NCBI GenBank assembly: GCA_039586365.1
Contig: JBDHKN010000086.1
Span: 1-22,072, forward strand
Reading direction: 5' to 3'
From: Gemmatimonadota bacterium
GTDB lineage: Bacteria > Gemmatimonadota > Gemmatimonadetes > Gemmatimonadales > GWC2-71-9
DNA: 22,072 nt
This document shows positions 3,197-19,017 of the stretch, in pieces. Below the pieces are notes generated by a model. That model was not told where the DNA came from. It saw only the letters and a program-made list of their open reading frames with translations, and searched no databases. Each line of letters starts with the position of its first letter. Positions within the stretch are counted from its first letter, which is position 1. The position numbers and the translations under genes are program-made.

Positions 3197-3529
3197 CTAG
3201 AAGAGACACGATGTGTGAGGCGCGGAAGGAGCAGAGTAGGCCGTACCGCCGTGTGCTAGACCTGCAATCGAGCCGCGACGCCGCCCGGAACGGTTGAACA
3301 ACTCCGCGGCGAGTTCGGCATCCTCGACGGCAAACGGCAGTACCTCGCTGATCAGTCGCCCGGCAAGCTCAATCTCCTTCGCCCGCAACGGCCCGCAAAG
3401 AAACTCGGCCCAGGCAATCGCGCTCAGCGCAAGCGGGGTCCCATCCCGGAGCCACTGTCGCAACAGGCTGTCTTCCGGCGCACCTTTCACGAGCGCACGG
3501 ATCAAGAAACTCGTATCGAGTTGAATCAC
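3197..3529 (-). CDS. vapC: PIN-domain (VapC-type) toxin, C-terminus apparently truncated or replaced
   Basis: GTG start overlaps the antitoxin stop (GTGA); 'IQLDTSFLI' and 'SAIAWAEFLCG' PIN motifs; PIN-like sequence stops after RRRGSIA. Confidence 0.8.
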   Translation of the reverse strand: MIQLDTSFLIRALVKGAPEDSLLRQWLRDGTPLALSAIAWAEFLCGPLRAKEIELAGRLISEVLPFAVEDAELAAELFNRSGRRRGSIAGLAHGGTAYSAPSAPHTSCLF

Positions 3530-3810
3530 TGGCTGGTCGACTCGCGCCGGCTCGATGCAGCCCGCCGCGCGGCGCCGGTGCGGTGGACCCACTCAGCCGC
3601 CTTTGCGGAGGACAGGCCAGCTGAGCGCTGCAGCCGATCTAGCGTCTGGAGCGGACCACCCTCCTCCGCTCCAGCCTGTGCAGCTGCCGCTCGGATCGCA
3701 CGCCTGAGCGCCTCGGATTTGGAGACGCCCCATCGGCGAGCCATTTGCTCGAGGGCGCGGACGGTGTCGGAATCGAGTGCGTAGGTCGTCTTGATTTTGG
3801 GTATGGCCAT
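3526..3810 (-). CDS. Ribbon-helix-helix (CopG-type) antitoxin
   Basis: 'KTTYALDSDTVRALEQMARRWGVSKSEALRRAI' RHH signature; directly upstream of and coupled to the PIN gene. Confidence 0.85.
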   Translation of the reverse strand: MAIPKIKTTYALDSDTVRALEQMARRWGVSKSEALRRAIRAAAAQAGAEEGGPLQTLDRLQRSAGLSSAKAAEWVHRTGAARRAASSRRESTSQ

Positions 3811-3846
3811 ACAAGCATAATACGGCCGTAATGTCTCCTCGGTCAA
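3802..3846 (-). promoter_or_regulatory. Sigma70-type promoter of the TA operon with two related palindromic operators
   Basis: Minus strand TTGACC(3846-3841)-N18-TATTAT(3822-3817)-N6-ATG; palindromes TATGGCCATA (3802-3811) and TACGGCCGTA (3821-3830). Confidence 0.65.
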
Positions 3847-3947
3847 CGCTTCCTCCCTGCGGACAACGCTGCGGGCCGACCCGCAGCCGTCGGTAACCAG
3901 ACGGCCGCGAGCGGTACCAGAAGCTCGCAAGATCAGGAGTGCGTTCT

Positions 3948-8688: not shown

Positions 8689-9093
8689 CTACATAACGGC
8701 ACGCTCCGCATCTCTCGCCTCGGGCTTCGCAACAAAGCGGAAGTAGCCAAATCCGATCGCGAGAAGGAGGTAGATCGCAACGGTGGACCAGCCGAGGGCA
8801 TTCATGACACCGCCGAGCTGGCCAATCAACGCGACGACGAAGCCGACGCTGTCACCGACGAAGAGGGCGAGTAGGATAGCTCGTCGAGCTTCGGAATCAG
8901 GCGCGTTCCTGGCGAACCACGTGAGGGCAGCAAATGCCAGTAGTGCTGCTCCGAACAACTGACCCACGTACTCGAGAGGTGCACTGACTTCAGGGCCATA
9001 GAGCGATGTGACCTGGCCGGGGAAAAGGACGAATCCGAGGCCAAAGACGACCGCGATAATTGCATTGACGATCAAGAATGCGTTGAGCTTCAT
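8689..9093 (-). CDS. Small four-helix membrane protein
   Basis: GAGGAGG RBS; four hydrophobic segments. Confidence 0.85.
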   Translation of the reverse strand: MKLNAFLIVNAIIAVVFGLGFVLFPGQVTSLYGPEVSAPLEYVGQLFGAALLAFAALTWFARNAPDSEARRAILLALFVGDSVGFVVALIGQLGGVMNALGWSTVAIYLLLAIGFGYFRFVAKPEARDAERAVM

Positions 9094-9147
9094 GGGACGC
9101 CTCCTCGCGAATGGCAGGGCAGATGTCAGGTTCCGGTCGGCGAGCCG

Positions 9148-9279
9148 GGCGGTCTCGTCGTCGGGTGGGCGTCCTACTGAGGCGTCTACTGCGGCGTCCA
9201 GTTATGGCGTCTACTCAGGCGGCGGGGCGCAACAGGCCACCGGCGTGCTGTCTCCATAGCACGGTGGCCGTGAGGGCGA
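9148..9279 (-). repeat. Conserved leader element copy 1 (hairpin plus 4 GACGCC units)
   Basis: Plus-strand GGCGTC at 9168, 9181, 9193, 9206; homologous to 10667-10819 and 12135-12276. Confidence 0.9.
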
Positions 9280-9320
9280 TCACTAGTATGAACTGCGGTA
9301 CCAAGCTTGGCTAGGTGATG

Positions 9321-9355
9321 AGACAAGACCCCGAGCGCCGCGAGACGCCCGGGGC
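9321..9355 (-). terminator. Intrinsic-terminator-like hairpin after the TPR gene
   Basis: Minus strand GCCCCGGGCGTC-TCGC-GGCGCTCGGGGT-CTTGTCT; three positions pair as G-U only on the minus strand. Confidence 0.65.
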
Positions 9356-9376
9356 ACGGTAAAGGCCAACGCCCGA

Positions 9377-10621
9377 TCAACCCTTGGGCCGCATTATCTC
9401 TGCATAGGCAGGGTCATCGCCCAATAGAGGGAAGAGAAGCACGTCCCGGTGCCACCAGAGGGTGGCGTATGCGCCCGCCTCGAAATCCTCTGCCAACAGC
9501 TCGAGCGCTCGAGCCTTGTCGCCCAGTACCGCATGTAGCGTCCCTTGGTACGCCTTTGTATCCTCATGGCCTTCGAGCCACCGCAGTTGGCTCGTGGCCC
9601 GTTCCGTGTCACCCAGGCGAGCAGCGACGTAGCCACCCATGGTGTGAAACCAGCCCTCGTCCGGCGCATCTTCGAGCAACGACTCACACACTGGCTTCGC
9701 GTCCTCCCAACGCCCGGCACCGATCAACGTGAATGTGCGCCAGTTCCGCTGTGCCACACTCGCGACTTGATCCTCAGGTTGTTCGTCGTACCACGCTGCT
9801 GCCCGACTGTAGAGATCCTCCGCGGCACCAACATGTCCGTGGGCAGCCAACTCAGCAGCGGCGGTTGTCATGAGAGCCCCAGGGGTGTTGGCGGCACCGC
9901 TGGGCGTGGCCGACATCGACTCTGCGATCACTCGCTCCAATTCTTCCATTTGGCCCAAGGCTGCAAGGGCCTGTGCCTCGATTACCAGACCGAAGAACTG
10001 ATCAGGGTACTGTTCTCGGGCACGCCGGGCCGCAGCGAGTTCAGCGTCGTGTTCTCCTAACAGGTGATGAGCCCAAACGAGTTGGGTCCAATAGGCGGTC
10101 CACCCCTTCATTGGCTCTCGGTAAGGGTCCAGGCTCAGAAGTACATCCCGCGCTTCTCGAGGGCGATTGCGTCGCAGCGCCCAGTACGACACTTGGTACA
10201 CGCCCTTGGTGCCAGGTCCAACTTCAGCCGCACGACGGGCAGCCTCGAGGGCACCATCGGGATTTCCCGCGGCAGATGCCAACTGTGTCTCCAGCCTGTG
10301 GCGGTAGTACTCGCTCAGCCGCTCCTTAGCCTCCTCCACAATTGCCAGGAGGGAGTCCCTCGTGCTGATGTTGCCAAGGTTAGAATGGCACAATGCCGCT
10401 TGGAACAGTGCCACGACGAAGTTACGATCCAGCTCGTAGGCCTTGGCGTATTGGAGAATAGCCTCCTGGTACTGACCTGCTCGGTAGTGTTTGGCACCCG
10501 CCGCATATGCCGCAAGTGCATCGGCGCTAAACTCCGGAACGTCCTGGCCGAAGGTTGGGGCCGGTGTGATGAGAACTGATGTTGCAGCGAGAGCCACAGC
10601 AACCACCGCTAGCTGTCGCAT
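9377..10621 (-). CDS. Exported tetratricopeptide-repeat protein
   Basis: AGGAGG RBS; signal peptide; TPR-like helices ('AILQYAKAYELDRNF'); ends LGDDPAYAEIMRPKG. Confidence 0.85.
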   Translation of the reverse strand: MRQLAVVAVALAATSVLITPAPTFGQDVPEFSADALAAYAAGAKHYRAGQYQEAILQYAKAYELDRNFVVALFQAALCHSNLGNISTRDSLLAIVEEAKERLSEYYRHRLETQLASAAGNPDGALEAARRAAEVGPGTKGVYQVSYWALRRNRPREARDVLLSLDPYREPMKGWTAYWTQLVWAHHLLGEHDAELAAARRAREQYPDQFFGLVIEAQALAALGQMEELERVIAESMSATPSGAANTPGALMTTAAAELAAHGHVGAAEDLYSRAAAWYDEQPEDQVASVAQRNWRTFTLIGAGRWEDAKPVCESLLEDAPDEGWFHTMGGYVAARLGDTERATSQLRWLEGHEDTKAYQGTLHAVLGDKARALELLAEDFEAGAYATLWWHRDVLLFPLLGDDPAYAEIMRPKG

Positions 10622-10666
10622 GTGAGAGCCTCCTGTTCCAGGGTTCGTGCCAGCATCGGCGGTCTT

Positions 10667-10819
10667 GGCGGTCTCGTCGTCGGGCGGGCGTCCTACTGAG
10701 GCGTCTACTGCGGCGTCCTACTACGGCGTCTACTACGGCGTCCAGCTACGGCGTCTACTCAGGCGGCGGGGCACAAAAGGCCACCGGCGTTTATCGGCAG
10801 TTCAGTGGCTGGAGGGCGA
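10667..10819 (-). repeat. Conserved leader element copy 2 (hairpin plus 6 GACGCC units)
   Basis: Plus-strand GGCGTC at 10687, 10700, 10712, 10725, 10737, 10750; first 52 nt differ from copy 1 at one position. Confidence 0.9.
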
Positions 10820-10852
10820 CACCATAGCTTGCAGCGAAGTACGGGGGAGCGC

Positions 10853-10889
10853 AAGACAAAGCCCCGAGCGCCGCGAGACGTCCGGGGCT
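10853..10889 (-). terminator. Intrinsic-terminator-like hairpin after the lipoprotein gene
   Basis: Minus strand AGCCCCGGACGTC-TCGC-GGCGCTCGGGGCT-TTGTCTT; near copy of 9321-9355. Confidence 0.65.
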
Positions 10890-10942
10890 GCCTGTTGTGG
10901 CTAACTCGAAGTCCTGTTGCCGTTGGCCGGTCCCCCAAATCG

Positions 10943-12043
10943 CTACGGATTGCAGCGCAAATCCATCGTGTAGCTGTTGGACCCCCCTGGACCGACGTTC
11001 AGGTTCACGAACAGACGCCCCCTGCCCAGTGCGGGCGGCAGCTCAGCTTGAATCAAGAGTTGCGAGGCCAAGGTCACGTTGTCCGTAACGATGCCCTTAT
11101 GGTGCTCGGACACCTTTGCCCGGTAGGTCTCGCCAATTGGCGTCGGGGGAGTGGTGAGCGGATTGACGGGTGTCACTTCAAGCATGCCGTTCGCGTGGAA
11201 CTGGCTGATGAAGTTGCCCGACGGGGTGACTATCACCTGCTGGCGCAGATCGACCGGCCCTGCCACGTACAAGTAGTCCCACGGAGCTGGGCATAGCTGT
11301 GTGGGGATCACCGCGCCAAACTGGATCACGAACTGCTGCCTGGCGATCGAGCGAGAAACGTCCTTTTTGCCGACGACGTTCAGCAGAGAAGCATAACCGT
11401 CATGGTCCGTGTCTCCCTGCTGATCGTGGTTGTCGAGCTCCCATGGTTCCCACGGGGCAGCGCCGTCGAGAAGGCCACTCCGCAGGAAATCGGCTAGGAC
11501 GAGTTGCTCTGCACCATCCCAGTCGATCACGATGTGATCGGACGTACCCGGGTACAGCCAGTCGAGGTGTGCGCCGCCAATGGTCCAGTCGCCAATGTCG
11601 AAGAACCTGACGTGGAACCGAAGATCCTCGTAATCACCGCACTCCAGCTGAATTGCCGAACCGACCCATCCTGCGGGCTCCCCGTAGGCGGTCTGCGCAC
11701 CGCCGATCGCGTCCTTCCACGTACAGTCCGGCAGACCGGAACCTCGATCGCCAGGCAAAAACATCAGGGCGGCGCGCAGGGCTCGCGGGTCAGCTTGACC
11801 GGCAAAGCCGAGGTTGATGGGATCCTGCGGAATTCCCATGTAGTTGACCCCCGTATACGGCCAGAACGTCGCGGAGCCAAACGCGGGTTCCACGGTCATC
11901 AGCCCGGACGGTGCGGGTTGCTCAGGGGCGCTTGTGTTGAGGAGCGGCTGCGACGACTGAGCGGGGTCTAGTGGGTCTTCGCACGCACAGACAAGGGCAA
12001 CACATAGGAATGTGCCCCCAACCGAGATAAGCCTTGCTCGCAT
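10943..12043 (-). CDS. Hypothetical lipoprotein, N-terminal half resembling the LssY C-terminal domain
   Basis: GGAGG RBS; lipobox-like LVCAC; 'DPINLGFAG...FHVRFF...IGGAHLD...HIVIDWDGAEQLVLADF...DGYASLL'. Confidence 0.75.
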   Translation of the reverse strand: MRARLISVGGTFLCVALVCACEDPLDPAQSSQPLLNTSAPEQPAPSGLMTVEPAFGSATFWPYTGVNYMGIPQDPINLGFAGQADPRALRAALMFLPGDRGSGLPDCTWKDAIGGAQTAYGEPAGWVGSAIQLECGDYEDLRFHVRFFDIGDWTIGGAHLDWLYPGTSDHIVIDWDGAEQLVLADFLRSGLLDGAAPWEPWELDNHDQQGDTDHDGYASLLNVVGKKDVSRSIARQQFVIQFGAVIPTQLCPAPWDYLYVAGPVDLRQQVIVTPSGNFISQFHANGMLEVTPVNPLTTPPTPIGETYRAKVSEHHKGIVTDNVTLASQLLIQAELPPALGRGRLFVNLNVGPGGSNSYTMDLRCNP

Positions 12044-12134
12044 GATGCACCTCCGTGACAGAGAGAGTTACGCGATTGTTATCACAGAGGCGTCAATGAA
12101 ACGTCAAAGATTGCAGATGGTGGCTCATCCTCGT

Positions 12135-12276
12135 GGTCTCGTCGTTGGGTGGGCGTCGTGCTGTGGCGTCTACTGCGACGTCGATCTCCGGCGTCCAGCT
12201 ATGGCGGCTACTCTGGCGGCGGGGCGCAAAAAGGCCACCCGCGTGGTGTCTCCATAGCACAGTGGCCTCGAGGGCG
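12135..12276 (-). repeat. Conserved leader element copy 3 (hairpin plus 5 partly degenerate units)
   Basis: Plus-strand units at 12152, 12165, 12177 (GACGTC), 12190, 12203 (GGCGGC); same flanks as copies 1 and 2. Confidence 0.85.
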
Positions 12277-12440
12277 GATATCGGTATGTACCCTAGTTCC
12301 AGGGTTGGCTAGCCCAACCGGGCCGCATGGCCCGGCCATGCAGCGAACCTCTCCGACGCTGCGAGGGCATCCGCATGGCCCAATCTGGCTCCACCAGTCC
12401 CCCAAGCCTAACTTTGAGCGGGACCCAGAGGAGTCGCCAT

Positions 12441-18629: not shown

Positions 18630-19017
18630 CGTCATTTCCACCGGCAGCGATGCAGGCCGTTCGTCAGGGGGGCTGCGTGTGGATGCCCCATTGAGGCATG
18701 AAGCCCGCGTCGATCGTCGAGAGGATCTCCCAATGACCCCGTGATTCTGCCGACAGGGAGGGTCCACGGGAATGTCAGACTGGACCCAGCAAAGCGTGTG
18801 GAATAGGCATTCAATCGCCTCGCTCCAAGTATGGAGTCGTGTTTTCAGAGTGTCTAGCCCCTCTGATGAGGTCCCTCGACCGGTCCTGCTGGGTAGCTCG
18901 GAGCGGTCTCAGACGGTTGGTAGCAAGTCCCCGCCTCAGATCCCGGTAGCCAAACGATCCTCCAGCGGCTATGGTTGCTTCCGCCAGTTTGTTCTTTCCT
19001 CCCAATTGAGGTGACCA

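Follow-up and report, generated by a model that had tools for sequence, protein, structure and literature searches.

Integrons combine one promoter with promoterless cassettes. Their attC sites, as defined in the available excerpts of PMC5027507, contain R boxes of the form RYYYAAC and GTTRRRY with an AAC triplet, and the NIME repeats of Neisseria are proposed, in the available part of PMC1797815, to raise exchange via homologous recombination or a specific recombinase. We analyzed a stretch of 22,072 nucleotides (the window) from a Gemmatimonadota bacterium (contig JBDHKN010000086.1 of assembly GCA_039586365.1), in which a conserved non-coding element, the core, precedes mutually unrelated genes, and a second repeat, the trailer, follows some of them. 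On our best reading, the two repeats would work like NIME arrays or attC sites while being members of neither group. We estimate a probability of about 0.55 that core and trailer form a two-anchor cassette-exchange system, in which the core, as the upstream anchor, is likely a DNA crossover site for gene modules and promoter modules.

Architecture and distribution of the arrays

The units follow one layout, namely, predicted promoter, variable 5' part, core, an untranslated region (UTR) of about 50 nt, gene and trailer hairpin, repeated in arrays that reach about ten anchored genes. The core is made up of a small hairpin whose loop varies, the segment GCCCCGCCGCC, two to six GACGCC units and an end motif, directly past which conservation falls off. 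The number of GACGCC units is even in 101 of 114 cores and their spacing is 12 or 13 nt in 292 of 305 periods, so that the actual repeat is a 25-nt pair; copy 2 in the window carries a 25-nt insertion relative to copy 1. The start codon lies 40-59 nt past the core end in 101 of 164 cases.

The trailer is a terminator-like hairpin with a T-rich tail (T content of the 8-nt flanks, 4.1 downstream vs 1.8 upstream) that is preceded by a co-oriented gene in 77 of 98 cases; 93.9% of its cells pair on the mRNA strand, without significant covariation. Of 147 leaders, 70 have their next trailer within 3.5 kb on their own strand and 1 has it on the other strand; 41 of the 147 have a trailer within 300 nt directly upstream. 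Some g14 arrays contain trailers only, so the two anchors are separable. Pairing between leader and trailer RNAs appears energetically possible in the model (-43.6 kcal/mol). A further small hairpin stands ahead of several trailers in the L179 region, a second promoter-like module follows trailers where the core is absent (L179 2570-2635, 3250-3315 and 4922-4987), and at five loci of G164 (L242, L244, L245, L247 and L248) a different long palindrome family occupies the trailer's place before the promoter. Here and below, G000 is the genome of the window, whose genes were called with our own hexamer model, and other G- and L-numbers denote other genomes and collected loci. The compared genomes are assemblies, including metagenome-derived ones, and kin among them are not independent; the motif-based collection of loci inflates apparent conservation, and loci from near-identical strains were merged by sequence context for the promoter, pair and block-end counts.

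Upstream of the core, a promoter-like pair (TTGC or TAGC, 17 nt, CANNNT) is found in 79 of 172 copies compared to 10 in shuffles. It is also enriched ahead of ordinary G000 genes (56 of 1606 vs 20), so that it likely represents the housekeeping, sigma-70-type class; a generic promoter scan of the window found nothing because the -10 box here begins with C. The core lies from a few nt to about 110 nt past the predicted -10, and the intervening 5' segment comes in many unrelated types. One of these types is the GCCAC..GTGGCC hairpin with a T tail that an earlier note, made from the letters of this DNA alone, had taken for the shared layout of the element; it is confined to a single upstream subtype and is absent from the minimal G164 copies. 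The T run of that description is the variable loop of another small hairpin (TTCGTG in 28, TTTTGT in 14 and TCACG in 6 of 114 cores), and a conserved terminator hairpin with a U tract was not found in the leader, a T run being present in a minority of loops. Long upstream variants (L008 6110-6400, L001 2200-2450, L003 and L004) carry a nested hairpin with a conserved AGTGATG loop; a T-box or other known leader was considered for them and yielded no Rfam match.

The repeat shared by the genes of the window is real and is not confined to the three copies first noticed there. A profile search recovers 32 loci in G000, none inside a called gene, with the next gene co-oriented in 28, opposite in 3 and a contig end in 1. 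All 7 same-genus genomes contain the element, and the 22-nt end motif occurs 56 times in G002, 17 in G003, 22 in G006, 18 in G007 and 4 in G020, whereas reversed-pattern controls give 0 matches vs the 4-56 per genome of the real pattern. In a phylum-wide scan, 28 of 401 genomes have a match and counts of at least 9 are confined to G000, G135, G171, G197 and G164, all from one family. In 80 loci chosen around known matches, the gene ahead is co-oriented for 104 of 115 leaders and not for 5, the remaining 6 lying at edges; in both sets the element is strongly oriented as a 5' element. Titled records with the motif belong to Gemmatimonadota in 5 of 7 matches, and the other two lack a profile match and look chance-like. 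Viral contigs gave 0 matches for either anchor, plasmid and phage collections none, and no description of the element was found in the full-text literature, a coverage mostly without subscription journals and without supplements. The element is real, widespread in a few genera and not found in the sources searched. A genome-wide GACGCC enrichment of the kind seen with uptake sequences was rejected, the 838 AGACGCC in G000 being close to the base-composition expectation (raw counts, hand estimate).

The genes behind the core are diverse: 161 cargo genes fall into 108 families. A match of at least 55% within G000 exists for 8 of 135 cargo genes compared to 97 of 457 neighbors. Under a crude hydropathy rule, and with start-codon choice differing between the cargo and background sets, 101 of 120 cargo genes have signal-peptide-like starts, against 1079 of 3505 genome-wide and 80 of 275 neighbors, and 41 of 120 are lipoprotein-like vs 151 of 3505 genome-wide. 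The GC content at third codon positions of the cargo is close to the genome median (0.69 vs 0.70). Apart from one fragment of an insertion sequence (IS), no recombinase is present among the family representatives scanned. Some otherwise unrelated cargo genes have UTRs and signal peptides in common. Lipoprotein paralogs at L179, L156, L168, L263 and L268 combine the same UTR and signal peptide with different mature domains, which suggests swaps at the lipobox, and a 174-aa gene is 90% identical at the DNA level across two genera (L006 4565-5135 and L266 4847-5417), which points to recent transfer.

Mosaicism and the proposed exchange of modules

Homologous cargo genes stand behind unrelated upstream sequences. 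In 39 of 42 homologous cargo pairs, the 80-nt stretches that precede the core show no relationship to each other; 36 of the 42 pairs belong to the membrane-protein family of the window, with one informative pair from each of five other families. In the 12 pairs whose UTRs can be aligned, the core's 5' loop goes with the upstream module (0.62 vs 0.39 in similarity), the end of the core and the 10 nt beyond it go with the gene (0.90 and 0.61, against 0.81 and 0.47), and the number of GACGCC repeats does not track the gene (0.17). Given that the loop tracks the promoter, the core end tracks the gene and the repeat number does not track it, the switches fall inside the repeat tract. Conversely, 45 cross-genome pairs of unrelated genes have common upstream modules; because of these pairs, and because the UTRs of the 12 pairs still align, plain divergence is an unlikely explanation. 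Comparison of different arrays reveals blocks of 92-98% identity that begin at the 5' foot of the trailer (L179/L267, L267/L268 and L125/L134), stop just past it (L097/L103 and L115/L120) or span trailer to core end (L152/L179). Altogether, 14 of 63 block ends are located at anchors, namely, 10 at trailers and 4 at cores, compared to an expected 8%, with one of the 14 repeating another event.

In G006, a second sigma-70-family gene with an intact frame lies behind a core (L183 1500-2460), away from the tRNA-linked native locus, with its start about 15 nt past the core end. It is nearer to the G002 gene (83.8% nt identity) than to the native gene of its own genome (79.5%) and has more amino-acid changes than native orthologs (20-30 vs 7-16 codons); it is a horizontally acquired copy. 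In G000 itself (C13, about 18770-18930), a site that resembles attC by eye lies past a small gene, and the homolog in L090 keeps the first box only and is followed by a trailer.

In the exchange system that we favor, a gene module would comprise the stretch between a core and the following trailer, and a promoter module the stretch from a trailer to the next core; incoming DNA would be swapped in between the resident core and the resident trailer. Out-of-register, that is, unequal, exchange would add or remove 25-nt units. A site seated between promoter and gene would have to stay unfolded in the mRNA, and the C.A/G.T asymmetry between the strands would let it remain a dyad, whether as a hairpin of the template strand or as an inverted repeat in duplex DNA, with the transcript left open. 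As the agent of exchange, a dedicated recombinase and general recombination at short repeats are about even.

The same mosaic arrays can be read in terms of regulation. The core could be a cis-regulatory site that tunes exported-protein genes, either as an operator formed by direct DNA repeats shortly past the transcription start or as a C-rich, unstructured leader RNA for a protein such as Rho, with mosaicism a by-product of repetition. The position of the core shortly past the predicted -10, the tight spacing to the start codon, the export bias of the cargo and the under-structured mRNA strand all fit this proposal, as do the 16 cores of G164, which occur without the trailer, and the retention of the core with one gene family across genera: among homologs of the membrane protein at 67% identity or more, 10 of 14 have the core (3 from genus g9 lack it and 1 is masked), vs 0 of 12 distant ones (26 of 28 rows examined, one fragment and one broken copy having been dropped). 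The proposal is nevertheless hard to reconcile with unrelated, rapidly turning over cargo and with the exchange of promoters at one and the same gene; of 18 core-carrying genomes searched, only 2 have a second NusG-family match, the 1052 neighboring proteins contain no recurring regulator family, and direct repeats alone leave the dyad pairing outside the hexamers unexplained. We consider a regulatory site possible, with considerable doubt. The suggestion of the earlier note that the leader co-regulates envelope genes survives in part: the cargo is indeed of the exported, envelope type, whereas its 108 unrelated accessory families, with promoter modules swapped behind the same genes, do not form a regulon.

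A selfish origin appears improbable. Under this scenario, the element would be a non-autonomous repeat, akin to miniature inverted-repeat transposable elements (MITEs) or repetitive extragenic palindromes (REPs), with an outward promoter, which lands downstream of terminators and is retained wherever it turns on a newly arrived gene. The patchy, multi-copy distribution in few genera, the 41 of 147 leaders no more than 300 nt behind a trailer, the sharp drop in conservation past the core end and the existence of RAYT-like Y1 genes in the genus are compatible with such a repeat. Yet the 5' end is not fixed, with its many unrelated upstream types, the trailer lacks a terminal GTAG/CGTC tag, the Y1 genes are flanked by palindromes other than the anchors, and orientation and spacing relative to genes are near-absolute. 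The junctions inspected displayed neither the fixed ends of an IS or MITE nor target duplication, and a clean empty site was not found.

Strand asymmetry of the core

The core is an imperfect dyad in which nearly every mismatch reads C.A on the mRNA strand and hence G.T on its complement, the template strand (591 vs 29 cells for the 11 outermost pairs). Among the positions that lie outside the hexamers, 8.3 of 10 are paired, compared to 4.9 when columns are shuffled (p 0.005). With RNA energies, the template strand of the window cores forms one long stem, G.T/G.U pairs included, with z-scores of -5.3 for copy 1 (9152..9228, four GACGCC units), -2.3 for copy 2 (10671..10772, six units) and -4.0 for copy 3 (12136..12225, a dyad with GACGCC units); this template is the plus strand, and copy 3 folds on that strand only. 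The mRNA strand of the same three copies folds worse than shuffles (z +1.3, +3.6 and +1.3), so that an attenuator, one of the two functions that the earlier note had inferred, is not supported, its hairpin and T tail being subtype-specific. For 60 cores, the mean z is -2.0 on the template strand vs +1.0 on the mRNA strand. With DNA energies, the template folds better as well (-9.4 vs -4.0 kcal/mol), as in attC sites, yet no better than shuffles, and the pairing probability of the boxes is 0.46 vs 0.04.

This pattern is what a template-strand hairpin would show, and a double-stranded dyad under selection against mRNA folding would account for it equally well, because only transitions that make C.A would break the RNA stem. 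A further variant of the proposal, which we regard as possible but doubtful, is a non-integron cassette system in which a putative enzyme would recombine the core as single-stranded DNA, selectively on one strand, at a site built from G.T pairs. G.T pairing would then allow transcription without folding, and core plus trailer could plug any gene for an exported protein, even a foreign sigma factor, behind the promoters of a library.

RNA energies give a far stronger fold than DNA energies do (mean -32 vs -9 kcal/mol), which would suit a core that forms a hairpin in antisense RNA and thereby shields the promoter from antisense read-through, a mirror of the trailer on the other strand. Trailer and core indeed share a similar inner box and outer stem, the trailer folding on the mRNA strand. 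The antisense hairpin is not followed by a U tract, however, and no conserved antisense promoter can be made out; with nonsignificant covariation, and with the swapping of promoters left unexplained, an insulator is very unlikely.

Relationship to known systems

The likeness to integron attC sites, insofar as these are covered by the available excerpts of PMC5027507 and PMC7439510, extends to a site between consecutive accessory genes with diverse cargo, to a single strand, the non-coding one, that is predicted to fold well, and to two conserved boxes and, apparently, a central spacer and terminal portion that both vary. The core has a variable central mismatch or 1-nt bulge, a variable loop and no fixed extrahelical G or T. 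Unlike attC as represented in those excerpts, the core consensus lacks the RYYYAAC/GTTRRRY boxes and the AAC triplet; the core is also highly conserved in sequence and derives its asymmetry from G.T pairs, and each unit comes with its own predicted promoter and terminator, the core being 5' of the gene. The integron integrase model TIGR02249 matches in 22 of 33 genomes, irrespective of whether they carry the element, and gives no match in G000, G002, G007, G020 and G197, which are incomplete assemblies.

With the NIME/dRS3 repeats, according to the available part of PMC1797815, the arrays share non-coding modular repeats that adjoin genes for surface or exported proteins, variable array length, enrichment of exported-protein genes and exchange end points at repeats. 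They differ from what that part describes in having two distinct anchors in fixed order and orientation with a promoter library between them, and in carrying unrelated genes as cargo instead of alleles at fixed loci; the dRS3 sequence given there is unlike both anchors.

The trailer, an extragenic palindrome of 26-28 bp that occurs in tens of copies at the 3' ends of genes, resembles REPs and REPINs as described in the accessible portion of PMC3733652. It lacks the unpaired terminal tag found there, with CGTC located inside the stem, and the 5' flank of 140 trailers shows only an AG that extends the stem. The core is located at 5' ends, and core and trailer do not form the head-to-head dimers of REPINs as that portion presents them. 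No anchor is present at E<0.1 in 11 Y1 loci searched for a REP/RAYT link. RAYT/IS200-like Y1 genes at L203-L206 and L209 are flanked by CCCCGGG-type palindromes of their own, of which G000 has only 3. A degenerate Y1-transposase-like frame occurs in G000 (C56 45961-46296) and G002 (L211), in both genomes at the corresponding position immediately before a dehydrogenase E2-like gene.

Riboswitch, attenuator and RfaH-ops-type leaders, like the core, are conserved elements in the 5' UTRs of envelope genes. The core differs from them in the lack of an Rfam match (none at the gathering score for the window, 7 own loci and 6 related loci), of conserved mRNA structure and of a co-distributed NusG paralog, on which count RfaH/LoaP-type antitermination was rejected. 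The element is probably a recombination anchor rather than a riboswitch.

Further candidates were examined and dismissed. A Xer/dif module was rejected: the dif-like site is AT-rich, occurs once per genome in 5 of 5 genomes, and is unlike either anchor; the single site of G000 (C48 41230-41251) is near-identical in the 5 of 5 genomes tested. The IS110 bridge RNA, IS91, RAYT and group II intron/reverse transcriptase (RT) routes show no linkage to the anchors: 1 of 12 IS110 loci has a core, which adjoins a truncated remnant, and a core occurs at 0 of 8 Y2 loci. RT was not found in the searched g14, g53 and g54 carriers, and the only RT match in G000 is of the group II intron type (C91 31876-33117). 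ComEC is present in 24 of 24 genomes tested and does not discriminate carriers.

Several results weigh against an exchange system. Tyrosine recombinases, the integron integrase, IS110, Y1, Y2 and RT are either not adjacent to the anchors or not co-distributed with them, and reads from circles or junctions were not observed. Mosaicism could be a by-product, given that crossovers are drawn to any repeat, and 49 of the 63 block ends lie away from anchors. G164, for all its cores, has no trailer at two or fewer mismatches (one at four). There is no replication-strand bias (8/16 and 7/19). The covariation of the template stem is within that of shuffles (42-277 of 500), and substitutions at Watson-Crick positions lead to G.T on the mRNA strand in 21 cases and to C.A in 14, which selection for a template fold would not predict. 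With DNA energies, the window copies are no better than shuffles (z -0.1 to -1.0).

The window units and their implications

All three window copies are intergenic, on the minus strand and non-coding, as originally reported; they occupy 9148-9279, 10667-10819 and 12135-12276 and end 54, 45 and 91 nt 5' of the starts of genes 8689-9093, 9377-10621 and 10943-12043, respectively. Copies 1 and 2 are identical at 51 of 52 nt, and nhmmer E-values range from 1e-28 to 1e-42, all three copies being part of the seed alignment. The downstream genes were correctly described as unrelated (BLASTP E 0.56 between the TPR protein and the lipoprotein, with the membrane protein matching neither).

Reading along the minus strand, unit 3 begins with a predicted promoter (12283..12311; -35 TAGCCA, 17 nt, -10 CATACC) of the motif class enriched upstream of cores. 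The variable 5' hairpin first noticed as the shared one follows (12233..12267); its sequence, fold and subtype clustering suggest that it belongs to the exchangeable promoter module. Behind the core, gene 3 (10943..12043) encodes a 366-aa predicted lipoprotein without a family match and is followed by a trailer (10862..10888), a terminator-like hairpin with a U-rich tail. Directly behind this trailer lies the predicted promoter of unit 2 (10826..10854; -35 TTGCGC, 17 nt, -10 CAAGCT), whose core precedes gene 2 (9377..10621), which encodes a 414-aa TPR protein with a predicted signal peptide, and then a second trailer (9329..9355). Unit 1 comprises a predicted promoter (9285..9313; -35 TAGCCA, 17 nt, -10 CATACT), a variable 5' hairpin recognized from sequence and fold (9235..9269), the core and gene 1 (8689..9093), a 134-aa membrane protein with no trailer after it, whose close homologs in other genera have the core under other promoter modules.

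The TPR protein is 29-34% identical to the C-terminal halves of four 814-874-aa G000 proteins but starts with a signal peptide of its own, possibly a domain recruited to export. Elsewhere in the window (3197-3930, minus strand), a PIN-domain toxin is paired with an RHH antitoxin, and type II toxin-antitoxin pairs also lie near the core loci L001, L010, L011 and L020.

If the exchange reading is right, the core would be an example of a dyad seated in a 5' UTR without an mRNA hairpin, and the anchors would mark accessory exported genes for annotation. An uncultured lineage would then build its accessory surface proteome from modules with standard ends, reshuffling promoters as well as genes, a design distinct from that of integrons.

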